Assembly: GCA_964594455.1 (NCBI GenBank)
Contig: CAZQLY010000003.1
Span: 37,360-101,359 of the forward strand
DNA length: 64,000 nt
DNA from: an uncultured Gammaproteobacteria bacterium
GTDB taxonomy: Bacteria; Patescibacteriota; Patescibacteriia; JAHIZJ01
Reading direction: 5' to 3'
The position numbers and the translations under genes are program-made. Below are positions 638 through 64,000 of the stretch, one piece after another. The notes below the pieces were generated by a model. The model had not been told where the DNA came from. It made no database searches and was given only the letters and a program-made list of their open reading frames with translations. Within the stretch, counting starts at the first letter, position 1; each line of letters begins with the position of its first letter.

Positions 638-2005
638 ATGCCGGATCTTCTAAAGAATAAAAAAGCAACCACCCTTCATTCATCTGCGAAGAAAAAATTC
701 ATTACTTTTGGTAGCCGAGAAACATGCTTGATCCGAGATGAACCCTGGTTTACCTGGTTGGCTAGAAACGGCGTTGAGTTCATTGATCTTCCGAATGGCC
801 GTATTTATGATTATTACGTTAGTGAAAAAGATTATCACCAGGCTTTAGAAAAACTAAGGATCAAGATGGCCCGTAATTGGAGCCAGCATTTAATAAAATA
901 TCATAAAAAGAAACGGGCGGTTATTAAAACCGCTTGTGATTTAAGGTTATCTGTAAAGTCTGGTAACAGGTCCGGAATATTAGACAGGCACAATAAATAC
1001 TTCCAGGCGGCTTATGATTTTAATGAATACATGTGGGGTGCTTGGGCGGTTATTTATCGAGTTGAGCCTGATGTGATGCAAGAAATACCCGAGGAAATTG
1101 GATTAATTGCCAAGCTAGATCAGCCAATCAATTTTATGAAAATGCAGCGTGATGTATTTTGTTTGCCGGCTAATAAATGGCTCCAGGAATATCAGTGGTT
1201 GAAGATGTATAATCCGTACGATCCGGTTTATACGAAAAAAGATTATTTAAAATTTAGAAAAACCTTAAAACGATCTGAGCTGAAAAAGCAATTTAAGGAA
1301 TTGGCAAAAACCAAGACGGATTTTGATAAGCTGATAAGACAAATCAAAAACCGCAGCTTGAAGCAGAAGATGCTGATGATTCACGTTTACGCCTGGCTAA
1401 AAACAGATCGGATTGATGTTTGGCGTAAGTCAATATTTGAATTAAGAGACTTTTATCAATATTTGGCGCAAGAGCTGCCTGGAGCCTCTTTGCGTGATGC
1501 CTGTAATTTGAGCTGCCAGGAAATTCGTGAGTTACTAAACAAAAAAAGGGCTGTATCAGCCAAAGAATTGAAAAAAAGGAGTAAAAATAGTGCGCTGTAT
1601 TATGCTCAAGGCAATAGGTTGAGTATTTTGTATAGTAATGAGAAAATTAGAAAGATAACTAAACAGCTGACTACTCAGGCGTATTCGGAAAACATTACCG
1701 GGGTTTGTGCCAGCCCGGGTTGGGCGGTTGGAAAAGTAAGCATTATTTCTCATTCATCTGATTTACGTAAAGTAAAAAATGGAGATGTGTTTGTCGCCAA
1801 ATATACTTTCCCGACCTATCTGCCAGCTATGGCCAAATGTTCAGCTATTGTTACGGATGACGGTGGGATGACTTCGCACGCTGCCATAGTTGCGCGCGAG
1901 TTAAAAATACCCTGTGTTGTTGGAACCAAGAATGCCACACGGCTGTTAAAGGATAAGGATAGAGTTGAGGTTAAGGCGACAAAAGGTCTAGTGAAAAAGA
2001 GATAA
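638..2005 (+). CDS. PEP-utiliser swivel-domain protein paralog with a divergent N-terminal region
   Basis: 455-aa ORF. The C-terminus reads GGMTSHAAIVARELKIPCVVGTKNATRLLKDKDRVEVKATKGLV, a phosphohistidine-domain signature with the catalytic His retained. The N-terminal ~330 aa are not recognisable by eye. Confidence 0.6.
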   Translation: MPDLLKNKKATTLHSSAKKKFITFGSRETCLIRDEPWFTWLARNGVEFIDLPNGRIYDYYVSEKDYHQALEKLRIKMARNWSQHLIKYHKKKRAVIKTACDLRLSVKSGNRSGILDRHNKYFQAAYDFNEYMWGAWAVIYRVEPDVMQEIPEEIGLIAKLDQPINFMKMQRDVFCLPANKWLQEYQWLKMYNPYDPVYTKKDYLKFRKTLKRSELKKQFKELAKTKTDFDKLIRQIKNRSLKQKMLMIHVYAWLKTDRIDVWRKSIFELRDFYQYLAQELPGASLRDACNLSCQEIRELLNKKRAVSAKELKKRSKNSALYYAQGNRLSILYSNEKIRKITKQLTTQAYSENITGVCASPGWAVGKVSIISHSSDLRKVKNGDVFVAKYTFPTYLPAMAKCSAIVTDDGGMTSHAAIVARELKIPCVVGTKNATRLLKDKDRVEVKATKGLVKKR

Positions 2006-2073
2006 GAACAGTCAGCGGGCCTTCCAGGCTCGCTTTTAGGTAGTTTTTGCATAATTTATGCTATAATTAGCCT

Positions 2074-3606
2074 ATGTCTGGATTAAAGATAATACCAAAA
2101 AGCGACCGACTGCAATGGGGTTCGATGCCGGCTGTGCCATACTTTATTATGCTGGTGGCTTGGGCAGTCATCGGTCGGGCACAAAAGAGATTTAAAAGCA
2201 GCTGGCCGCACGGGCAGGAGCTTTTTTACGATAAGGAATTTGGCGTTTGGTTTAGCTATATGTCCGAAGTTGAGAAGAGCGGTATGAAAGCGGCTAAAAA
2301 GTTTTATCATCATCCTAAACGATTGCGATTGCTAAAAAAAGAATATGCAGCCTGCTTAAAGGTTATCCAGGAAGCGCGTAAATTTGTTCATCAATATTCT
2401 TTACGCAAATTTTCCTATGACGAATTGTTGGATTTGTACCGAACTTTTGTGGATGTGTATGAAAGACTTTGGACAGTAACGATTCAGTCAGAGATTACCG
2501 GTTATGGATTGAATGGATTTTTTACTAGAGAAATCCCAAAACATTTCCCACCCGACCAAGTAGCTGAGGTTTTGTCAATTCTATCAACCAGCGATGACCT
2601 TTCTTTTTATCAAAAAGAGGAGATAGATTTTTATTCTATATTAAAATCACTTAAGCCTAGTAGTTCTGTTTTAAAGAACGATAAAAATTTCCGCAATTGG
2701 CTCAAGAAAAAACATCCTCAGGTTAATTACAAGTTGCAGCAACACGCCAAAGAATACAGCTGGTTGATGAACAACTATAAACGCGGCCAGCCTTTGCCAG
2801 AATCATATTTTTACTCCAGAGCCAGACATGTGTTATCTGAAAACAAGCATTTGGACGAAGAGATTCGTGCTATAAAGAAACAATTTAGGCTGTCATTGAA
2901 CAAAAAGCGTGCCTTGATAAAAAAAGTCCAAGCCGGACTTTTGAAATTTTATGCCCAAAAGGTGATAGGCGATGCTATCGCCTGGCAGGATGACCGCAAG
3001 GGCTGGCAGATGCGAGCTCAAGAAGTGATTTATCGTTTTCTTCAGGAGTTTTCTCGCCGCAAAAAGGTCAGTTTAGATAAATGGTATTATCTTACGCCAA
3101 AAGAAACCTGGGCAGTGCTGGTGGGAGCGCTTCGATTTCCGCATCGAGACGTCAAAGCCAGGCAAAAAAGAATGTTAGTCGTTGTAGATTATAATGATTA
3201 CAGAATTTTTACCGGCCGGGTGGCAGAAAAGTTTTATCGCATTTATCGAACTAACTATAAGAGCGACAAGGACCGTGAAGTAAAAGGAATAGTGGGCTCA
3301 CGCGGCCAGCCGGGCATTTTACGGGCCAAGGTTCAAATATTGCACAGCCCGTCTCAAGTAAAAACTTTCAAAAAAGGTAGGGTGTTGGTGGCCGAATTAA
3401 CCAGCCCGGATTATATTGGTGCGATTCGAAAAGCCAGTGCCATTGTTACAGACCACGGCGGCCTAACTTCACACGCTGCCGTGGTAGCGCGGGAGTTCAA
3501 TATCCCCTGCATAGTTGGTACGAAAAATGCCACTCAGGCTTTTTCCAGCGGCGATTTAATAGAAATTGATTCAAATACTGGTGTTGTTAGAAGGGTTAAA
3601 AAATGA
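2074..3606 (+). CDS. PEP-utiliser swivel-domain protein paralog
   Basis: 510-aa ORF. The C-terminus reads GGLTSHAAVVAREFNIPCIVGTKNATQAFSSGDLIEIDSNTGVV. The stop overlaps the next start (ATGA at 3603). Confidence 0.6.
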   Translation: MSGLKIIPKSDRLQWGSMPAVPYFIMLVAWAVIGRAQKRFKSSWPHGQELFYDKEFGVWFSYMSEVEKSGMKAAKKFYHHPKRLRLLKKEYAACLKVIQEARKFVHQYSLRKFSYDELLDLYRTFVDVYERLWTVTIQSEITGYGLNGFFTREIPKHFPPDQVAEVLSILSTSDDLSFYQKEEIDFYSILKSLKPSSSVLKNDKNFRNWLKKKHPQVNYKLQQHAKEYSWLMNNYKRGQPLPESYFYSRARHVLSENKHLDEEIRAIKKQFRLSLNKKRALIKKVQAGLLKFYAQKVIGDAIAWQDDRKGWQMRAQEVIYRFLQEFSRRKKVSLDKWYYLTPKETWAVLVGALRFPHRDVKARQKRMLVVVDYNDYRIFTGRVAEKFYRIYRTNYKSDKDREVKGIVGSRGQPGILRAKVQILHSPSQVKTFKKGRVLVAELTSPDYIGAIRKASAIVTDHGGLTSHAAVVAREFNIPCIVGTKNATQAFSSGDLIEIDSNTGVVRRVKK

Positions 3607-4682
3607 AAAAAGCAAAGCAACGCCATCCTTATCATATGTTCACCAGAGATTTTTCTCTTTTTACTTCCGAGCTTTGGTATTGGCTGGTGACAGAATCAAT
3701 GCGGGCTGATATCGGCTTTAGTTTAAGTGATCAGATAGTAAATTATGACGGCCGGTCAGCTCAATGCTTTAGATTAAAGGAAGATATGGATGATTTTAAA
3801 AAGCTGGTTATTAATCTCCCAGACTATCATCGGCTTTTCAGCGAAGAAAGTCACCTCGAGTTCCGCTCGATCCTAAAAGAAATAAAAAGGCTGATTGCAA
3901 TCAAGCCCAGAGAGCCTTTTACTTTTAACCCAATTCAAAAGGTAATTCAGCATTGGGAAAAAATATGGGCTATGTTTGTTATTGCTTTTAATTTACCGTC
4001 TGGCTGGGCTGAAGATATCAAGAAGAAAAAAGGTGCCCGAGCGAAAAGAATAATCAATGATTATTATCAGGATCGTGTTTCATCTGAAGGCGCATTTGAA
4101 TTAATGGATGCAACAATTCGAGAATATATCGAACAGTTGTTTAAAAAACACCACATTCCAACCAGGTATTCGCATCTGATAGGTTTTACTGAATTCATGG
4201 ATTTAATGGAATTAGGCATTAAGCCTCCATTAAGCGTTTTGCAGGCCAGGAGTAAGGGTTATGTAACTATTAAAGGCAAGATATATACTGGGAAAGACTT
4301 TGCTGAGCTTTTGAAAAAACATGGCTATATTTATTCCAGAAAAGATGTAAATAAAAACATCAAAGCGTTTGAGGGATTAGCAGCTTACTCATCGGGTATT
4401 GTCAGAGGCAGGGTTAGCCTAGTTTTCAATATTCAGGACATGAAGAAGTTTATAAAAGGAAAAATCATGGTCTCACCGGAAACTTCACCGGTTTTTCTAC
4501 CCGCCATGAAAAAAGCCAAAGCAATAATTACAGATGAAGGTGGTATCACATCCCATGCTTCAATAGCCTCGAGAGAATTCAAAATACCCTGTATTGTCGG
4601 CACTAAGATTGCCACAAAAGCACTAAAGAACGACCAGCAAATAGAAATAGACACTAAAAACGGAATAATCAAAATTATATGA
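3603..4682 (+). CDS. PEP-utiliser swivel-domain protein paralog
   Basis: 359-aa ORF. The C-terminus reads GGITSHASIASREFKIPCIVGTKIATKALKNDQQIEIDTKNGII. It is translationally coupled to both neighbours (overlapping stop and start). Confidence 0.6.
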   Translation: MKKAKQRHPYHMFTRDFSLFTSELWYWLVTESMRADIGFSLSDQIVNYDGRSAQCFRLKEDMDDFKKLVINLPDYHRLFSEESHLEFRSILKEIKRLIAIKPREPFTFNPIQKVIQHWEKIWAMFVIAFNLPSGWAEDIKKKKGARAKRIINDYYQDRVSSEGAFELMDATIREYIEQLFKKHHIPTRYSHLIGFTEFMDLMELGIKPPLSVLQARSKGYVTIKGKIYTGKDFAELLKKHGYIYSRKDVNKNIKAFEGLAAYSSGIVRGRVSLVFNIQDMKKFIKGKIMVSPETSPVFLPAMKKAKAIITDEGGITSHASIASREFKIPCIVGTKIATKALKNDQQIEIDTKNGIIKII

Positions 4683-6109
4683 AATGGACATTTATTGGAA
4701 CCAGAAGAGTAGCAGTACAAGTGGCCGAAGCCTGGTGTTATGGCTGGGGGCAGGCTATGAAAAAAGTTTACGGTGTTTATATTAATTCAACTTTGATATA
4801 CCGTGATGAGAAAAAAACTGATATTTTTGCTGATGCCAAAGATTATAAAAGGTTTTATTCCGGATTGCTAACATTGTTGCAAGATGAAAGATTTGTAAAA
4901 GACTTCCATCCCCAAGCCCAAAAGAGGTTAGAAGAACTTTATTCAGAAATGAAGAAAATTTTAGCAGTTGATTTAAAGAAATTAACCGACAAGCAGTTAC
5001 TAAAGTTGTTTGAGAAAGAAATATTGCCCAGACAAACTCAGTTCTACGTTCGGATGTGGACAGTGTATCAAATCGGTGAACCAATGACTGAAACGATGTC
5101 TAATATTTTGAGAAAAAAATTGAATGACGGAGCACGCGTCACAGAGTTATTGGTTAAATTAGCTGAACCTTTAAGTTTTAACGACGCTATCAGTAATCGT
5201 TATGAGCTTTTGAAGTTAGCAGTTGATGCCAATAAACTTAAACCAGCCGAGTTGGATATGAAATTAAAGCTTCATGCTAAGAAGTTCCAGCATATCCCAG
5301 TATATGATATTGATCATGATCCTTATACTTACGATCATTTCAAACAAGAGTTGAAGGAAATAAAAGACGCGGCCAAGGAACTGAAAAAACTGGAATCAGA
5401 AATAGATCGCAGAAAAAAAGAACACAAAAAGATAATCAGTGAATTAAAGCCCGATCGAAAGTTCTTGGCTCTCATTAACTTTATCAAAGAGAACTCTTTT
5501 CTTCGTGATTACCGTGATTCAATTAGGCAGAAGCTTAACCTGGAATTAAAAAAGTACTATGAGGAATTGGCTGATCGGATGAAGATTACATTAGAAGAAG
5601 TAATAACGTTAGTAAACAGTGAAATAATTGAGTATTTTGGTCAAAACAAAAGATTCCCCCAGGAAGAATTAAATCGCCGCAAGAAATCGTTTTTTCTGAT
5701 AGTGCGAGGAGAAAAAATAAAAATATTGTCTGGAAACGAAGCCTTAAAAAAAGCCGAGCTGGAATTGGGATTAAACAAAGCTTCCAGCAACCAATTGCTC
5801 AGAGGAGTGATAGGCTCAAAAGGTAAGGCAAAAGGTGTAGTCAAAATAGTATACACCAACCGTGATTTAGATAAGGTAAAAGAGGGAGAAATTTTAGTGT
5901 CTAGTATGACTCGACAAGATTTTGTTCCAGCAATGCGCCGAGCTGGGGCTATAGTAACTGACGAGGGCGGAGTAACGTGCCATGCAGCCATTGTTGCCCG
6001 GGAATTAGAAACCCCTTGCGTTATCGGTACCAAAATCGCAACCAAAGTCTTAAAAGATGGCGATCAAGTGGAAGTAGATGCGAATAAAGGAATTGTTAAA
6101 AAGATCTAA
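4679..6109 (+). CDS. PEP-utiliser swivel-domain protein paralog
   Basis: 476-aa ORF. The C-terminus reads GGVTCHAAIVARELETPCVIGTKIATKVLKDGDQVEVDANKGIV. Confidence 0.6.
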   Translation: MKWTFIGTRRVAVQVAEAWCYGWGQAMKKVYGVYINSTLIYRDEKKTDIFADAKDYKRFYSGLLTLLQDERFVKDFHPQAQKRLEELYSEMKKILAVDLKKLTDKQLLKLFEKEILPRQTQFYVRMWTVYQIGEPMTETMSNILRKKLNDGARVTELLVKLAEPLSFNDAISNRYELLKLAVDANKLKPAELDMKLKLHAKKFQHIPVYDIDHDPYTYDHFKQELKEIKDAAKELKKLESEIDRRKKEHKKIISELKPDRKFLALINFIKENSFLRDYRDSIRQKLNLELKKYYEELADRMKITLEEVITLVNSEIIEYFGQNKRFPQEELNRRKKSFFLIVRGEKIKILSGNEALKKAELELGLNKASSNQLLRGVIGSKGKAKGVVKIVYTNRDLDKVKEGEILVSSMTRQDFVPAMRRAGAIVTDEGGVTCHAAIVARELETPCVIGTKIATKVLKDGDQVEVDANKGIVKKI

Positions 6110-6245
6110 ATAATAAATAAATGTTAAAAACCCCAAAACAATTAAACGACAGAACAAAACCTTATACGTTTGGGATTTAGCTGGTACACTTTTTAATGAA
6201 AAATGGAATAATAAGCTCACGGGTTTTGATAGTTTTGATGAATGG

Positions 6246-6791
6246 GTGGAAAACAAACTTGGGAAGAAAATATCTGAAATGTCAGATTATGAATACGAAC
6301 GTGGTTACGAAACACCTTATAAGAAAGGCGCAATGTTTAATTTAAAAACTGTAGATGGATTTAGAGAAGTGCTTGATAAGACGCATAATAACGAGGCTTT
6401 TTCTAGCGGTAATCCAGAACAGCTTCTATGTCGGGCTAAGTACTTAAATCCGAAAATTGGCTTCAATCTGCTTAAATATTTCCTAGCCATAAACTCACCT
6501 TTTGACTATGGAACAAGCAATAAGAAAACAGCAGAAGTATATAAAAAATATCTGTTAAAAAAATACAAACAGGGATATCGGACTATTATTTATACAGAAG
6601 ATAAAGCTAAATACATTAGCTCGTTTAAAAAAGCCGCTGCCAATGTTAAAATCAAACACCCAAATTTTAATTATCACATTTATCATATATTAAGAAACAA
6701 AAAAGGCATTAAAAGAAAAAATGGCTATTTTGAAATTGGTAATTTGTGGGATTTACTAAAAAACGAAAAGAAGTTGAATAATATCATATGA
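6246..6791 (+). CDS. hypothetical protein; the annotated GTG start is doubtful and there may be an upstream extension through a frameshift (HAD-like DLAGTL motif upstream)
   Basis: 181-aa ORF. The same frame stays open and coding-like back to about 6117 (..KTLYVWDLAGTLFNEKWNN..) but has no start codon there. An ATG at 6121 lies in the +1 frame (MLKTPKQLNDRTKPYTFGI*), and the two frames meet at a GGG run at 6170-6172. Confidence 0.4.
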   Translation: MENKLGKKISEMSDYEYERGYETPYKKGAMFNLKTVDGFREVLDKTHNNEAFSSGNPEQLLCRAKYLNPKIGFNLLKYFLAINSPFDYGTSNKKTAEVYKKYLLKKYKQGYRTIIYTEDKAKYISSFKKAAANVKIKHPNFNYHIYHILRNKKGIKRKNGYFEIGNLWDLLKNEKKLNNII

Positions 6792-7543
6792 ATAATTTAG
6801 CAATTAAAAAACAAAAAACTGTTAAATTTGGATTAGCCGAGTGGTTTCTGACAGGTGGTATGCTTTTTGCCGTTTTGGTATCTTATTTAATATTCAGCGT
6901 ACCAACAATTTCCGATTTTATCGAAATAGTATGGGATAAGGTTGTGGAATATAGTTATGATTTAGGGTATCTGGGGGCATTCTTTATGTCTTGGTTAGGC
7001 AATTCCACGATTGTAATCCCTTTTCCTTATACGGCGTTGGTATTTTTATTCGGAGCTAGCGGCTTAAACCCAATGGCTCTAGGAATACTGGCAGGTGTAG
7101 GCGCAACGTTGGGCGAGTCGATTTCCTATATTGTTGGGTTCTTGGGTTATAAAGTTACTAAGGACAAATATAGGAAAAACATGAGCGCCTTGAGGAAATT
7201 AATAGACACCAGACCAAAGTTTGCCATATTTTTCTTTTTTCTAATCGGCGCCACCCCAATTCCCGATGATGTATTCATAATTCCGTTGGGATTGATTCGC
7301 TATAATGTTTTCAGGGCGATTATTCCATTTGCTATAGGTAAAATAGTTTTGACTTCAATAATCGCCTACATGGGATATTTTGCTGGTGATGCCACTACTA
7401 TCGGATTTCTAGAGGACCAAAGGGAATGGGTCAACGTCATGTCGCTGGTTGGAGTTATTATAGTAATTTACGCAATATTGAAGATTAATTGGGAAAAGTT
7501 AAGCGAGCGATTAATAAAAGATACGGGTTCACAACAATCATGA
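6788..7543 (+). CDS. DedA/SNARE-associated (TVP38/TMEM64) family membrane protein
   Basis: 251-aa multi-TM protein with the characteristic ..GATPIPDDVFIIPLGLIRY.. region. Its start overlaps the upstream stop. Confidence 0.5.
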   Translation: MNNLAIKKQKTVKFGLAEWFLTGGMLFAVLVSYLIFSVPTISDFIEIVWDKVVEYSYDLGYLGAFFMSWLGNSTIVIPFPYTALVFLFGASGLNPMALGILAGVGATLGESISYIVGFLGYKVTKDKYRKNMSALRKLIDTRPKFAIFFFFLIGATPIPDDVFIIPLGLIRYNVFRAIIPFAIGKIVLTSIIAYMGYFAGDATTIGFLEDQREWVNVMSLVGVIIVIYAILKINWEKLSERLIKDTGSQQS

Positions 7544-8127
7544 CGATCTACCAGGGGTTAAAAATAATTGACCAAGCAAAATTACCCCATCCCGAATGGC
7601 AGTTCGTTAGGACTTCAAAAGATATTAAAAATTTAAATAAGGTCAAAGACTATTGCGGTTGGACGATCAGAACAGCCAAGGTGGATGGAGCGCCTTGGCA
7701 GAACCTATACGTGAATTGGTTGCCCAAGAAAAAGGTTTCAGTCAAAGTAGATGAGCTTCAGGCTCAACATCCGGGCCGGGCCATGTTTGTAATTTACCCT
7801 TCCTGGGAATGGAAGAAAGGTGGCACTATTTTGGTAGAAAAGGAGCGAGTTGTCATAAAGGCCACCCGAGGTGAAATCGTGAATTTAATGCGCTACGGCA
7901 AAATAAGTGCCAGCTACGTTTTTCAAAAAGGGAAATTGGTTGAGGTAAACGGTGATAAGAATTTTTTATCTGTTTCAGAGATAAAAAAAGTTATTCAAGC
8001 CCAAGAACGTATTAAGAAAAAAAACGTGATTTTGGAATGGGGCATTACGACTCAGAATAAATTCATATTTTACCGCATAGAAGACTTAAAAGAAGCAGCT
8101 AAGTTATTAATTGAGAAATATTCATGA
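7540..8127 (+). CDS. hypothetical protein, possibly a minimal ATP-grasp-like partner of the downstream swivel-domain gene
   Basis: The probable start is the ATG at 7540, which overlaps the upstream stop (ATGA). Its own stop overlaps the next start at 8124. A weak resemblance of GGTILVEKERVVIKATRGEIVNLMRYGKISASYVF to an ATP-grasp lid is by eye only. Confidence 0.35.
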   Translation: MTIYQGLKIIDQAKLPHPEWQFVRTSKDIKNLNKVKDYCGWTIRTAKVDGAPWQNLYVNWLPKKKVSVKVDELQAQHPGRAMFVIYPSWEWKKGGTILVEKERVVIKATRGEIVNLMRYGKISASYVFQKGKLVEVNGDKNFLSVSEIKKVIQAQERIKKKNVILEWGITTQNKFIFYRIEDLKEAAKLLIEKYS

Positions 8128-9596
8128 TAGTAAAATTTCGAAGCATTAACTGGGTCTACGAATGGGAGAGGTCGATTAATTTTTACCACGGTCATTTGAT
8201 AGCCCGTTTGTGGAACCAGCATAGTCTAGAGCGCTGGCCGACAAATTTTTATTGGCCCAAGAGAAGACAATACTTGTTGTTAAATAAAAGGGATACTGGT
8301 TTTGCCTACGTTGATATAAAAGAGGTGAATCGACTTTCGGATAATTATTTGGACAAAATTACAAAGAAAGATATTGCCGGACGATATGTGAAACAGGCAG
8401 ACACTCTAGTTCGAAGCGTCATCCGATTTGTCTCCCAGCACAAAAAAGCTGATCTGAAAAAGATGGATCGAAAAGATTTTCTTAAGTTATTTGGTGATTA
8501 TTTCTATTACTATTTTTCATTGACTGGCCTGGTAGGGGAAATCCGAACTGTCAACTGGACCGGCATTGAAGTCCTTAAGAGTAAAATTAAAAGAAGTTTT
8601 AATAATGACAGACAGCTTCAGAAAGCAGTGAATATTCTGACGGCTACACCGCGCGAAAGCTTTTTAAACAAATCGGAAAAAGATTTTGTAAAAACACTAG
8701 AAAAAATAAAGAACAATCCTAACCAAAGCCAGAAACTGACAACCGACTATTGGATGAAATATCGGTGGTTTCCTTGTGGCTTTAAAGATGAAGCTCCATT
8801 AACATATCTAGAAACCAAGAAGAAAATAACTAAAGGTTTAAGAGAATATAAGCAGTTGTGCAAAAAAATTAAGCAGGATGAAAAGTTCAGGGCTAATTTG
8901 AAAAAGCAAAGAACCGCGTTATTAAAAAAGATCAAGCCGGATCTGGGAACTAAAAGAATAATTGATTTTTTATCCCAGTCCACTTACTATAAGGATTTTA
9001 CCCGCTTTATGATTAATCGTTGGGGTCACTATGAAATGATCCCAGTTATGAAAGAAGCTGCTAAGCGTCTCGGCATATCATATAAACAGTTGGGTTATTT
9101 AAGTTTTGAAGAAATAGCCGATGGCCTTAGGGGCGAAGCTGTTCCCAGAACTGAAATAAGAAAAAGGCAGCTAGCTTGGGCTTGCGTGGTCATAAACGAT
9201 AGATTTAGGGTGTTGTCTGGTAGTCAGGCCGTTAAGTTAATCGGGACTTTTGATAAAGCAACGACAAGGATAAAAGAATTAAGCGGCGCTACAGCAAATC
9301 CAGGTAAAGCATCAGGCGAAGTGGTAATTGTCAGGAATCTGAGGGATGCCCGTAAAGCAAAAACGCAGGGCAAGATTTTTGTTACCACTATGACTACGCC
9401 CGAGCTAATGCCCTATCTGAGGAATGTCAAAGCTATAATTACAGACGAGGGTGGAATTACTTGCCACGCTGCTATTGTTTCAAGAGAGTTGGGTATTCCA
9501 TGCGTGATTGGGACTGCGCAAGGAACTAGAGTTCTAAAGAATGGTGATCGAGTAGAGGTTAATGCAACGGATGGTGTTGTGAAAAAAATTAAATAA
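8124..9596 (+). CDS. PEP-utiliser swivel-domain protein paralog
   Basis: 490-aa ORF. The C-terminus reads GGITCHAAIVSRELGIPCVIGTAQGTRVLKNGDRVEVNATDGVV. Confidence 0.6.
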   Translation: MIVKFRSINWVYEWERSINFYHGHLIARLWNQHSLERWPTNFYWPKRRQYLLLNKRDTGFAYVDIKEVNRLSDNYLDKITKKDIAGRYVKQADTLVRSVIRFVSQHKKADLKKMDRKDFLKLFGDYFYYYFSLTGLVGEIRTVNWTGIEVLKSKIKRSFNNDRQLQKAVNILTATPRESFLNKSEKDFVKTLEKIKNNPNQSQKLTTDYWMKYRWFPCGFKDEAPLTYLETKKKITKGLREYKQLCKKIKQDEKFRANLKKQRTALLKKIKPDLGTKRIIDFLSQSTYYKDFTRFMINRWGHYEMIPVMKEAAKRLGISYKQLGYLSFEEIADGLRGEAVPRTEIRKRQLAWACVVINDRFRVLSGSQAVKLIGTFDKATTRIKELSGATANPGKASGEVVIVRNLRDARKAKTQGKIFVTTMTTPELMPYLRNVKAIITDEGGITCHAAIVSRELGIPCVIGTAQGTRVLKNGDRVEVNATDGVVKKIK

Positions 9597-27686: not shown

Positions 27687-27763
27687 TGGTGACAGGGGTG
27701 GGAATCGAACCCACGACCTAGGGCTTATGAGTCCCTCGCTCTAACCAACTGAGCTACCCTGCC
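27687..27763 (-). tRNA. tRNA with CAT anticodon (elongator Met or lysidine-modified Ile2); CCA encoded
   Basis: Minus-strand cloverleaf GGCAGGG-TA-GCTC-AGTTGGTTA-GAGC...CTCATAA...GTGGG-TTCGATT-CCCAC-CCCTGTC-A-CCA. Position 1 pairs G1:C72, so it is not an initiator. Confidence 0.8.
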
Positions 27764-28097
27764 TTACATGGTTTCTTTTACTTTTTATTTTCAGAAAAAG
27801 ATCTTCATCAGGTCGTTTTAACAACCTTTTTCTAGTAAAGGCAATACCAGAAGCAGTTTTTAAATATTTTTCAAAACTCAACGCCGTATGTTTATCTTCG
27901 AAGACACAATAGAACTTAAGATGCCAATTCCGTGAGTTTGAAGTGTATCCGGTTGTAGATGTTGCATGCCTATATAATCGTCCTTGAAGATTTGTCGTAT
28001 ATCCTTTATAAAGTCTTTTTGTAACAGAATTCATCAGAACATATACTGTGTGTTTCATAACACTATACCATACTCCCCGCTGCATTTTTGTGGACAT
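27741..28097 (-). CDS. small GIY-YIG nuclease-domain protein (YhbQ/UPF0213-like)
   Basis: ..HTVYVLMNSVTKRLYKGYTTNLQGRLYRHA...WHLKFYCVFEDKHTALSFEKYLKTASG.. matches the GIY-YIG motifs. The true start is probably an internal Met (28085 or 28058). The 3' end overlaps the tRNA at 27687-27763 by ~23 nt. Confidence 0.5.
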   Translation of the reverse strand: MSTKMQRGVWYSVMKHTVYVLMNSVTKRLYKGYTTNLQGRLYRHATSTTGYTSNSRNWHLKFYCVFEDKHTALSFEKYLKTASGIAFTRKRLLKRPDEDLFLKIKSKRNHVRQGSSVG

Positions 28098-44167: not shown

Positions 44168-44352
44168 GCGGCTGTAGCTCAGTCAGGTTAGAGCCCTTGG
44201 TACAAGTCCAGCCAGAAACAGTGGCCTGTTTGTCCTTGCAAGAGAGTGGGCTGCTACCTAACCCGGATTATGGATTAGGGCAGGTAAGGCATTAACTTGC
44301 CTGTTGGCTGGGTACGACAAGGAGATCGAGGGTTCAAATCCCTTCGGCCGCA
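44168..44352 (+). tRNA. tRNA-like gene interrupted by a ~104-nt structured insertion (candidate intron-containing tRNA or disrupted tRNA); anticodon unresolved
   Basis: The 5' part reads GCGGCTG-TA-GCTC-AGTCAGGTTA-GAGC-C-CTTGG.. and the 3' part reads ..GAGGG-TTCAAAT-CCCTT-CGGCCGC-A. The acceptor stems pair 7/7 (one G-U). The insertion at 44208-44311 begins CCAGCC and ends GGCTGG. Confidence 0.4.
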
Positions 44353-44361
44353 CATGGTTTA

Positions 44362-44434
44362 GGCTGGATAGAACAGGTGGTAGCTCGCTGGGCTCATAAC
44401 CCAGAGGTCATGGGTTCGAATCCCGTTCCCGCCA
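44362..44434 (+). tRNA. tRNA with CAT anticodon (third CAT tRNA); CCA not encoded; one acceptor and one D-stem mismatch
   Basis: GGCTGGA-TA-GAAC-AGGTGGTA-GCTC-G-CTGGG-CTCATAA-CCCAG-AGGTC-ATGGG-TTCGAAT-CCCGT-TCCCGCC-A. Mismatches at 4:69 (T:C) and 12:23 (A:C) mean it could be a functional Met/Ile2 tRNA or a decaying copy. Confidence 0.5.
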
Positions 44435-44598
44435 CAACCTTTCCTGCGCGGTTACCCCCACGCAGGGCCAAGGGCGGTGAACAGTTTCATTGGAAACTAG
44501 TTCTCCGCCCTCTTTTTATGCCTTGACAAAAAAATGTTTTTTTGTATAAAGTTACTTGTTGTATAAACGGTTGTTGTCCTAGCAAAAGGAGGTGTGGC

Positions 44599-63477: not shown

Positions 63478-63625
63478 TTTCTAAATAAAAACGGCCAGAA
63501 CAGGTTTGCTTTTTTATTTTTATTCTGGTATAATTGAGCTACTTTTTGCGTTTTTTGTTTTAATATTAGCTTTTTTCTTCATCAATACGAGTATTTGTAT
63601 ATAGCAACCCACTTCCGCCGCCAGC

Positions 63626-63890
63626 GGGCGGCTAGCTCAGCTGGTTACCTGCCTGCCGGTAGGCGGGGAGCGCTATCCTCATACCTGCCTGCGCGGAGCC
63701 TCACATTAATTATATTATATGGAGCAAAGATGCTTCGGCAAAGGCAGGCCTATCCGCCGCGCTCGTGTAGCTCAGCTGGTTAGAGCGCTATCCTCACACG
63801 ATAGAGGTCCCTGGTTCGAGTCCAGGCACGAGCACCATCGCTCCGACGGGCGGGCGATAGAGGTCACAAGTTCGAATCTTGTGTCGCCCA
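63626..63890 (+). tRNA. split tRNA-like gene (CAT anticodon) carrying a 20-nt hairpin insertion in the D-loop and a ~171-nt insertion at the canonical 37/38 position that contains a complete tRNA-Val gene
   Basis: With the insertions removed the sequence folds as GGGCGGC-TA-GCTC-AGCTGGTTA-GAGC-G-CTATC-CTCATAC-GATAG-AGGTC-ACAAG-TTCGAAT-CTTGT-GTCGCCC-A with perfect stems (one G-U). The inserts are 63648-63667 and 63684-63854, and both start CCTGCC and end GGCGGG. Confidence 0.5.
63761..63837 (+). tRNA. tRNA-Val (CAC), CCA encoded; nested inside the insertion of the split tRNA
   Basis: GCTCGTG-TA-GCTC-AGCTGGTTA-GAGC-G-CTATC-CTCACAC-GATAG-AGGTC-CCTGG-TTCGAGT-CCAGG-CACGAGC-A-CCA. Confidence 0.85.
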
Positions 63891-64000
63891 CTGGCTGCAG
63901 AAGTGGATAGTAATTAACCTTAGATTAATATCTTAAGTAATAAAAAATAATCATGACATTCTTAGACAAAATAAATAAACCCAGACCGGGTTTAAACGTC

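Follow-up and report, generated by a model that had tools for sequence, protein, structure and literature searches.

The DNA considered here, called the window throughout, is a 64,000-nt stretch of contig CAZQLY010000003.1 (assembly GCA_964594455.1, positions 37,360 to 101,359 of the forward strand). At 63626–63890 of the window lies a tRNA-like gene that is interrupted twice, once in the D-loop and once in the anticodon loop, and the larger interruption carries a complete tRNA-Val(CAC) gene of its own. We consider it rather likely that this composite locus is a disabled tRNA-Val(CAC) shell around a working inner tRNA-Val(CAC), made by a selfish family of palindromes and GIY-YIG nucleases. The parts of the locus, with a promoter-like sequence upstream, are as follows.

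63526–63534 (+): candidate extended −10 promoter-like motif TGgTATAAT, picked out by eye about 90 nt 5′ of the composite locus
63626–63647 (+): 5′ segment of the outer gene, of tRNA-Val type, GGGCGGCTAGCTCAGCTGGTTA, with acceptor strand GGGCGGC, T8 A9, D-stem GCTC and D-loop AGCTGGTTA
63648–63667 (+): insert 1, a 20-nt GC-rich palindrome, CCTGCCTGCCGGTAGGCGGG, in the D-loop between A21 and G22
63668–63683 (+): middle segment of the outer gene, GAGCGCTATCCTCATA, with D-stem 3′ strand GAGC, G26, anticodon-stem strand CTATC and loop CTCATA
63684–63854 (+): insert 2, 171 nt, in the anticodon loop between positions 37 and 38
63684–63748 (+): closed 65-nt hairpin element at the start of insert 2, CCTGCCTG...AAGGCAGG, which holds the CGGAGC arm and a GCTTCGGC tetraloop hairpin
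63749–63760 (+): leader of the inner tRNA, CCTATCCGCCGC, whose CTATCC repeats the outer anticodon-stem strand
63761–63837 (+): inner tRNA-Val(CAC), intact and with encoded CCA (ARAGORN; Rfam RF00005, 69.2 bits, E = 5e-13)
63838–63854 (+): 3′ arm of insert 2, TCGCTCCGACGGGCGGG, which can pair with CCTGCC...CGGAGC at 63684–63699
63855–63890 (+): 3′ segment of the outer gene, CGATAGAGGTCACAAGTTCGAATCTTGTGTCGCCCA, with C38, GATAG, AGGTC, T-arm ACAAG TTCGAAT CTTGT, acceptor strand GTCGCCC and A73

The first-pass annotation held that removal of the 20-nt and 171-nt inserts leaves a cloverleaf, and this stands: the three outer segments join to 74 nt that ARAGORN accepts and calls tRNA-Met(cat), with a 7-bp acceptor stem containing one G-T pair and the T-loop TTCGAAT. 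With the inserts taken out, the sequences GGTTA|GAGC and CATA|C are exactly restored, and neither junction shows duplicated bases that would mark a target-site duplication. Also confirmed are the CCTGCC...GGCGGG ends that the annotation gave to both inserts and the second helix, CGGAGC/GCTCCG, that it saw in the larger one, since insert 2 runs from CCTGCC to CGGAGC (63694–63699) and closes with GCTCCG (63840–63845) and GGCGGG (63849–63854); the tRNA-Val(CAC) with CCA that it placed inside is recovered by both ARAGORN and Rfam. The 5′ junction TA|CCTGCCTGC is common to the two inserts, the first 9 nt of the 65-nt element are identical to the start of the D-loop insert, and the GCTTCGGC hairpin occupies 63732–63739. 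A piece of the leader, TCCGCCGC, has a second copy at 63614–63621, just 5′ of the outer gene. The terminal pattern of the inserts is not a matter of chance, because CCTGCC-N(0-30)-GGCGGG matches insert 1 only in the whole window, where 0.09 matches are expected, and CCYGCCYG is found at the two insert starts and nowhere else in the 64 kb. Folding of the unspliced 265 nt was uninformative: the outer cloverleaf is absent from the minimum free energy (MFE) structure, which outdoes shuffled sequences by a modest margin only (z = −2.5). The TGgTATAAT motif was not called in a promoter consensus scan, owing to the lack of a fitting −35 hexamer.

Judged by its sequence, the outer gene is a tRNA-Val body with an altered anticodon and not a tRNA-Met or tRNA-Ile2 by descent. 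Outer and inner genes are identical over positions 8–49 save position 36 (T in the outer, C in the inner gene), with 58 of 74 positions shared overall, and the outer sequence, once joined, agrees with a tRNA-Val(CAC) of Peregrinibacteria (L012) at 69/74 positions. The acceptor and D-arm of the outer 5′ segment are found also in intact tRNA-Val genes of the candidate phyla radiation (CPR). When GTDB genomes were scanned with the outer gene's T-arm and acceptor (28 nt), 23 loci were found, and all full-length genes among them (21/21) are tRNA-Val, with anticodon GAC or CAC, in CPR and Planctomycete genomes; CPR bacteria predominate among the genomes with this 3′ half (Moranbacteria, Uhrbacteria, Peregrinibacteria and Paceibacteria), and a few are Planctomycetes. 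The middle segment has CAT where CAC would be expected, a single substitution (C36 to T) away, so that the anticodon does not match the identity of the body. The earlier view of the outer gene as a duplicate thus holds, given its Val type and the shared centre, and its tentative assignment to Met or Ile2 does not. CCA is encoded by the inner gene and by three of the four other tRNA genes in the window; the outer gene ends in ...GTCGCCCA followed by CTG, not CCA. Three other CAT tRNA genes lie in the window, at 27687, 28117 and 44362. The third of them (44362–44435, +) has a mismatched acceptor pair, an irregular D-arm (TAGAACAGGTGGTAGCTCG), no encoded CCA and a score of 57.6 bits.

Palindromes and GIY-YIG nucleases at tRNA genes

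Metagenome contigs were scanned with GCTCAGYYGGTTACCYGCC (GGTTA|CCYGCC), a pattern that fixes the 5′ junction only, and at least 120 stretches with at least 118 unique loci were obtained; the family counts given below are taken among the matches listed, 118 unique loci. GGCRGG closes the insert directly before the D-stem GAGC in 97 of the 118, which is telling because the scan fixed the 5′ junction alone, and 92 of these 97 inserts pair over all 6 terminal bp. Inserts measure between 16 and 177 nt (median 36). Most frequent among them is a perfect 20-bp palindrome, CCTGCCTGCCGGCAGGCAGG, from which insert 1 of the window differs at two positions, and at least 30 loci carry an insert within two mismatches of this 20-mer. 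Insert 1 appears to be an empty palindrome, and both inserts of the window are probably members of one family. That family occurs on at least 11 anticodon types, includes tandem double hairpins, and has further, less frequently used insertion sites at 9/10, 10/11, the anticodon loop, 56/57 in the T-loop, 65/66, the variable region and a few non-tRNA positions. The 900 kb of retrieved loci contained no close relative of the window locus, and no prior description of the palindrome family was found in the searchable literature. A phage origin was considered and rejected, as the phage database gave generic tRNA matches alone and 2.9 million viral contigs contained a single match to the junction pattern, compared with more than 120 stretches from metagenomes.

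Most interrupted genes of this family are accompanied by an intact one. An uninterrupted tRNA gene lies within 520 nt downstream in 96/118 loci, 16 of the 118 having less than 300 nt of sequence beyond the scan match, and the intact partners comprise tRNAs for Ile, Val, Met, Asp, His, Asn, Thr and Lys. Without its hairpin, the interrupted copy corresponds to the intact tRNA over a stretch that starts at position 1 or 8 and ends around position 24–65, mostly 28–42. Most of the interrupted copies, being truncated 5′ duplicates that tend to end in the anticodon arm, thus cannot be tRNAs. Two classes of spacer separate the fragment from the intact gene, one of about 10–110 nt and one of about 240–300 nt. 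The sequence of the fragment always matches the local tRNA, and the palindrome and any open reading frame (ORF) follow the lineage of the element. Disrupted copies without a hairpin occur in L048, L074 and L095, so that hairpin insertion is separable from duplication. The first-pass annotation had looked to other tRNA genes with such inserts as a check on splicing; they exist, in at least 118 loci, but mostly as 5′ fragments beside an intact tRNA, and the arrangement that it thought very unusual for bacteria proves common in CPR-type metagenome contigs.

In two loci, L116 (minus strand, about 5380–5590) and L048 (1200–1436), the hairpin-bearing 5′ fragment is repeated in tandem, each unit measuring about 70–75 nt, and in L048 the palindrome is present in some units and not in others.

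The nested layout of the window also recurs. At least 13 loci contain a tRNA-Val gene within a tRNA-like shell (L037, L044, L065, L075, L095, L097, L104, L105, L073, L061, L043, L014 and the window), to which L146 can be added. The outer acceptor strands pair 7/7 in L037, L044, L065, L075, L095, L097, L104 and L105, and nearly so in L073, L061 and L043; shell and inner gene typically share about positions 8–38 and differ in the acceptor stem, as they do in the window. The shell is damaged in most nested loci, with stem mismatches, a hit in the anticodon loop or T-loop, an extra hairpin in the T-loop, or three anticodon-loop nucleotides replaced by a cassette bounded by TTCACCCCG…CGGGGCAAGT. 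L024 and L036 have a clean 37/38 junction, TTGACA|CCCGCC…GGCGGG|T, like that of the window, together with decayed stems. The shell of the window is the best preserved among the nested loci examined. Locus L014, which is Moranbacteria-like, has a tRNA-Val(GAC) inside its shell and the same 32-nt hairpin, CCCGCCCGAACGTACCGTTCGGTACG(A/G)GCGGG, in both the D-loop (GGTTA|GAGC) and the T-loop (GGTTC|GAAT) of that shell; at eight syntenic Moranbacteria loci this tRNA-Val(GAC) is present and no shell surrounds it.

The Moranbacteria-type tRNA-Val(GAC) has a further peculiarity, in that its leader and trailer pair and extend the acceptor stem by 8–14 bp through the discriminator base. This was seen in L005, L007, L009, L010, L014, L020, L022 and L023, where the sequences differ and the complementarity is kept, and amounts to 9 of 36 Val(GAC) genes, where chance would give about 1.3, with essentially no other tRNA type involved. 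As a general feature of CPR tRNAs it was rejected, being confined to this one type of tRNA-Val(GAC) locus and a single tRNA-Pro(CGG) in L075.

The palindromes are linked to a nuclease gene. GIY-YIG ORFs occupy at least 28 of the spacers between 5′ fragment and intact tRNA, the products encoded in the long spacers being about 80 aa long (E = 1e-12 to 1e-18 against Pfam GIY-YIG), and the order is fixed as fragment, ORF and tRNA, with the ORF starting about 10 nt after the fragment. The type of palindrome tracks the nuclease clade across tRNA species: clade 4 nucleases (…KYWKSGCGKE) go with CCTGCCTGCCGGCAGGCAGG in 6/6 loci (Asp, Asn and Val) and clade 2 nucleases (…KTAAGRRFLK) with CCCGCCCG…CGTTCGGGCGGG in 8/8 loci, both among the matches listed, while clade 3 goes with CCCGCCCGC.ATCGC… palindromes and clade 5 mostly with CCTGCCTACCTGGCGGTACGGCAGGCAGG. 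A tRNA-Leu(TAG) locus that was not selected by the DNA pattern (L036, 7100–7620, minus strand) has two clade-3 palindromes in the D-loop of the 5′ fragment, followed by a GIY-YIG ORF, likewise of clade 3, and the intact tRNA. This partnership of GIY-YIG nucleases and palindromes at tRNA genes is apparently undescribed.

The window contains such a pair as well, at a different tRNA gene.

28116–28097 (−): perfect hairpin TCCTTCGCGCTAGCGAAGGA, directly after the CCA of tRNA-fMet and before the GIY-YIG ORF
28058–27741 (−): GIY-YIG ORF between tRNA-fMet and tRNA-Met (Pfam PF01541, E = 4e-14)

Lacking its own stop codon, the ORF terminates at a TAG in the D-loop (GGTTAGAGC) of tRNA-Met. Its closest homologue, P0002 (contigs L146–L148), has the same hairpin-ORF layout, and the P0002 contigs carry a nested tRNA-Val(TAC), with CCTGCCTGCCGGCAGGCAG near the T-loop of the shell, just upstream of the nuclease gene. 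No ORF lies within the composite locus 63626–63890 itself, the nuclease gene of the window being that at 27741–28058.

The fixed order of fragment, ORF and tRNA, with the ORF about 10 nt behind the fragment, could also be expected if fragments and shells were functional RNAs, acting as tRNA-mimic decoys or antitoxins for the cognate GIY-YIG protein or as 5′ stabilisers or processing scaffolds, much like the repeat RNA that precedes the toxin gene in toxin-antitoxin systems of type III. The dependence of palindrome type on nuclease clade, the tandem arrays of hairpin-bearing fragments in L116 and L048 and the good preservation of the window shell are consistent with this view, but the co-variation of clade and palindrome fits tight linkage in one element lineage equally well. 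Furthermore, loci without an ORF, the window locus among them, outnumber those with one, and the fragment ends are heterogeneous, from 24 to 65. Together with the orientation and pairing statistics of the hairpins given in the next section, which speak against selection on a transcript, this makes a functional RNA an unlikely explanation.

The identical 41 nt at the centre of the outer and inner genes, the commonness of tandem tRNA duplicates and the lack of any visible transposase or target-site duplication would all agree with an ordinary local duplication and rearrangement of tRNA-Val in which the GC-rich hairpins arose in place, with no mobile element. Such an origin would leave unexplained why palindromes with the same ends sit at the same nucleotide in at least 97 independent loci and on 11 anticodon types, why they occur in both orientations, why near-identical copies occupy two sites of one shell (the D-loop and T-loop of L014) and why they are linked to specific GIY-YIG clades, and we give it scarcely any credence.

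DNA palindrome or RNA intron

The hairpins behave as DNA palindromes, not as RNA introns. Among 67 unique hairpins, non-Watson-Crick oppositions comprise 30 G·T and 33 A·C, and the better-folding strand is the tRNA-sense strand in 22 hairpins and the antisense strand in 32. Selection at the level of the transcript is not indicated, because an excess of G·U would then be expected and none is seen. Related asymmetric hairpins at the same D-loop position form 33 pairs in the same orientation and 23 in opposite orientation, and CCCGCCCGAACGTACCGTTCGGTACGGGCGGG is found alongside its own exact reverse complement. The family shows several features of a mini-element: terminal inverted repeats CCYGCC...GGCRGG around a variable interior, in many loci and in both orientations.

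Two known types of tRNA intron were sought at the locus and rejected. Neither insert has the bulge-helix-bulge (BHB) motif, the terminal helix starting directly at the junction; at the 37/38 insert the 5′ side has 6 unpaired nt and the 3′ side 1, and no pairing is possible between CUCA and GGCG. No match to the group I intron model RF00028 was obtained in 63480–64000, either at the gathering threshold or at E ≤ 10, and only the inner tRNA was detected there. The group I introns surveyed in tRNA genes of Patescibacteria measure 184–894 bp (PMC13011429), against 20 nt and 171 nt for the two inserts, and 77 nt of the latter are tRNA. An interrupted gene with an intact duplicate nearby, the condition of 96 of the 118 loci, is also unlike genes with BHB introns. 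ARAGORN in intron mode was tried over all loci and discarded, as its calls, with dozens of spurious hybrids among them, were mostly false fusions of neighbouring tRNAs.

Excision from RNA has nevertheless a case to answer. An endonuclease cutting at the base of the CCYGCC/GGCRGG helix, followed by an RtcB-type ligase, would convert the outer gene into a CAU tRNA, by a switch from Val to Met or as an Ile2 tRNA modified with lysidine, and RNase P with 3′ processing would free the nested tRNA-Val. Classical anticodon-switch work on the tRNA-Val and tRNA-Met of Escherichia coli reportedly found that methionyl-tRNA synthetase can accept a tRNA-Val body as substrate when that body is given no more than a CAU anticodon. 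Exact removal of the inserts gives a cloverleaf that ARAGORN accepts, the same terminal helix bounds both inserts and is conserved family-wide, all insert sites fall in tRNA loops, and CPR rRNA genes have short insertions, other than introns, at the tips of stem-loops (PMC11270868). On the other side stand the missing BHB and group I signals, the preponderance of 5′ fragments with an intact copy almost always adjacent, the occurrence of the hairpins in both orientations and with no G·U strand bias, and the many nested relatives that are short of three anticodon-loop nucleotides or carry further inserts. Beyond that, three CAT tRNAs are already present in the window, the outer gene lacks CCA, and neither RtcB nor EndA was found among the 28 window ORFs scanned against Pfam, a weak test given that it covers 64 kb only. 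We regard excision at the RNA level as very unlikely here. Slimmer still is the chance that CPR bacteria possess a pathway of RNA excision and ligation or of fragment assembly, that the palindromes are a new kind of bacterial non-ribozyme tRNA intron and that the outer gene yields a working CAU tRNA. Of the two outcomes that the first-pass annotation had left side by side, a pseudogenised duplicate agrees with truncated copies beside intact ones and with the lack of G·U bias, whereas splicing and ligation are not borne out, there being neither a BHB motif nor a group I intron.

A second interrupted tRNA-like gene lies in the window at 44168–44353 (+), 8 nt upstream of the tRNA(CAT) at 44362. 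ARAGORN in intron mode reads it as tRNA-Val(TAC) with a structured insert of 111 nt in the anticodon loop, and in its MFE fold (z = −2.97) three arms are kept and the anticodon stem lengthens into a helix-bulge-helix-bulge-helix. The likeness to a BHB motif is regarded as probably accidental, because the modelled bulges measure 2 and 4 nt instead of 3 each, the anticodon produced by canonical BHB cutting would be ACA, and the central helix is built on a direct repeat of GGTAC. This gene contains no inner tRNA and has no Rfam match; an intact partner is not seen in the window, nor are relatives among the retrieved loci.

The genes of the window itself offer context. Pfam identifies Mfd, topoisomerase I, SecDF, Pth, Der, RelA/SpoT and a LytR-family protein, besides surface proteins of pilin-like and WxL/LysM kinds; many other ORFs match nothing in Pfam. 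Judged by this content, the window is bacterial chromosome, and we infer an origin in CPR/Patescibacteria from its genes and from the genomes that share the tRNA. Near its start are four paralogous ORFs of 455–510 aa on the plus strand (638–2005, 2074–3606, 4679–6109 and 8124–9596; region 638–9596), whose Pfam match is limited to the C-terminal mobile domain of PEP-utilising enzymes.

Origin and fate of the nested locus

The reading that we favour can be set out as a series of steps. GC-rich palindromes of the form 5′-CCYGCC...GGCRGG-3′ would colonise tRNA genes of CPR/Patescibacteria at the DNA level, as elements of 16 nt to about 180 nt whose larger versions enclose a whole tRNA gene. Insertion would destroy the tRNA gene and hence survive in a redundant copy only; every locus would keep an uninterrupted copy, in tandem downstream or nested, because an insertion persists only where a second copy supplies the tRNA. 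The 171-nt insert of the window would be a palindrome-bounded unit with a replacement tRNA-Val(CAC), presumed from its sequence to be a functional gene. Decay of the shell may have begun with the change of C36 to T and the loss of CCA, and gene conversion between the adjacent repeats could account for the identity of the central 41 nt of shell and inner gene. The locus is probably read as one transcript, possibly from the TGgTATAAT motif at 63526–63534, from which ordinary 5′ and 3′ tRNA processing would free the inner tRNA. The GIY-YIG nucleases, for their part, may mobilise or co-convert their cognate palindromes. Models of movement by insertion at 21/22, by a Campbell-type crossover and by synthesis-dependent strand annealing were each tried, and none fits all loci.

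Several observations weigh against this account. How a stand-alone GIY-YIG domain of about 80 aa would move a palindrome remains unexplained; no target-site duplication was seen and no transposase is present. The intact copy keeps the same D-loop target, and its immunity to the nuclease is not accounted for. The Moranbacteria locus, compared between L014 and L021 and others, has an inner tRNA that looks native and a shell that looks like the extra part, so that a simple model in which a cargo tRNA enters a native gene does not fit. The shell of the window is unusually clean, with all stems and a 7-nt anticodon loop restored on removal of the inserts, a structure that would have been lost from a gene long dead. 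At several nested loci a T stands at position 36 (TTGAT, TCGAT, TTCAT), and the C36-to-T change may therefore be part of the junction rather than random decay. Lastly, the interrupted gene at 44168–44353 has no intact partner in the window, and a small probability of removal at the RNA level therefore stays.

Relation to known systems and implications

The layout of the locus invites comparison with archaeal multi-intron and split tRNAs, such as those with BHB introns and those of Nanoarchaeum, in which inserts likewise occur in the D-loop and at 37/38 and the insert ends form a GC-rich helix; as in the split tRNAs of the Nanoarchaeum type, the outer halves could pair through complementary tails once the inner tRNA is released. 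The archaeal likeness noted in the first-pass annotation holds for this layout only. Unlike the archaeal genes, the locus has no 3-4-3 bulge-helix-bulge and a bacterial host (Mfd, TopA, SecDF, Pth and Der), and its relatives are mostly truncated beside an intact copy and bear orientation-independent DNA palindromes.

In its logic the locus is closest to free-standing GIY-YIG homing cassettes and to palindromic mini-elements that are paired with an enzyme. Fungal mitochondrial GIY-YIG ORFs carry a partial copy of the gene that they invade. The loci described here similarly have a small GIY-YIG gene wedged between tRNA genes, and a partial duplication of the target keeps one functional copy while the fragment is displaced. 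They differ in that the proteins consist of the catalytic domain of about 80 aa alone, with no DNA-binding domain, that a cognate palindrome marks the displaced fragment, and that the window locus has no ORF. Among palindromic mini-elements are REP/REPIN sequences with their RAYT enzymes, the Rickettsia palindromic elements, the GC clusters and double-hairpin elements of yeast and Allomyces mitochondria, and miniature inverted-repeat transposable elements. These too are short, GC-rich, imperfect palindromes present in many copies and both orientations, inside genes including RNA genes, and in the REP/RAYT case each palindrome family is likewise paired with its own enzyme family. The palindromes at tRNA genes depart from them in having one preferred tRNA position, a GIY-YIG protein in place of an HUH/Y1 transposase, no target-site duplication, and some copies that contain a whole tRNA gene. 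A free-standing GIY-YIG homing endonuclease within a tRNA gene cluster is known from phage T4, namely SegB (PMC2330249).

Other systems share single features. The group I introns found in Patescibacteria tRNA genes (PMC13011429) are anticodon-loop insertions in the same phylum and hide tRNA genes from standard annotation tools, but they are self-splicing ribozymes, whereas no RF00028 signal is present here. Short insertions that are not introns are numerous at the stem-loop tips of CPR rRNA genes, where non-intron insertions have also been reported to contain GIY-YIG ORFs (PMC11270868). Both these insertions and the intervening sequences of bacterial 23S rRNA, which RNase III removes, are helix-bounded inserts at loop tips of a structured RNA gene, as are the inserts of the window; unlike rRNA, which withstands being cut into pieces, a tRNA severed in both D-loop and anticodon loop is not expected to work, and the 8-bp stem is too short for RNase III. 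Elements integrated at tRNA att sites also leave a partial tRNA copy beside an intact one, but theirs is a 3′ fragment kilobases away and they need an integrase, whereas the CPR loci have 5′ fragments 10–300 nt upstream or a full shell, and no integrase. The Planctomycete loci L004/L006 (on the same contig) and L015/L016 hold a partial 3′ copy of tRNA-Val, from the anticodon loop to the 3′ end, which in Bythopirellula lies about 1.4 kb from the full gene; these copies are the classic footprint of an element integrated in a tRNA gene and are unrelated to the CPR palindromes.

Taken in this setting, the locus is no evidence for archaeal-type tRNA splicing in bacteria, and the likelihood that it is a spliced bacterial split tRNA is low. 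If the reading favoured here is true, CPR genomes would hold many tRNA look-alikes, in the form of shells and 5′ fragments, together with nested genes, and tools that allow introns would mis-call them. Tiny stand-alone GIY-YIG nucleases and their cognate GC-rich palindromes would then specifically parasitise tRNA genes in the smallest bacterial genomes, and the same elements may account for some of the uncharacterised short insertions and GIY-YIG ORFs in CPR rRNA genes. Since the element, or the survivor of its insertion, would always retain one working copy of the tRNA, these loci would provide a tractable system for how selfish DNA persists in essential single-copy RNA genes.

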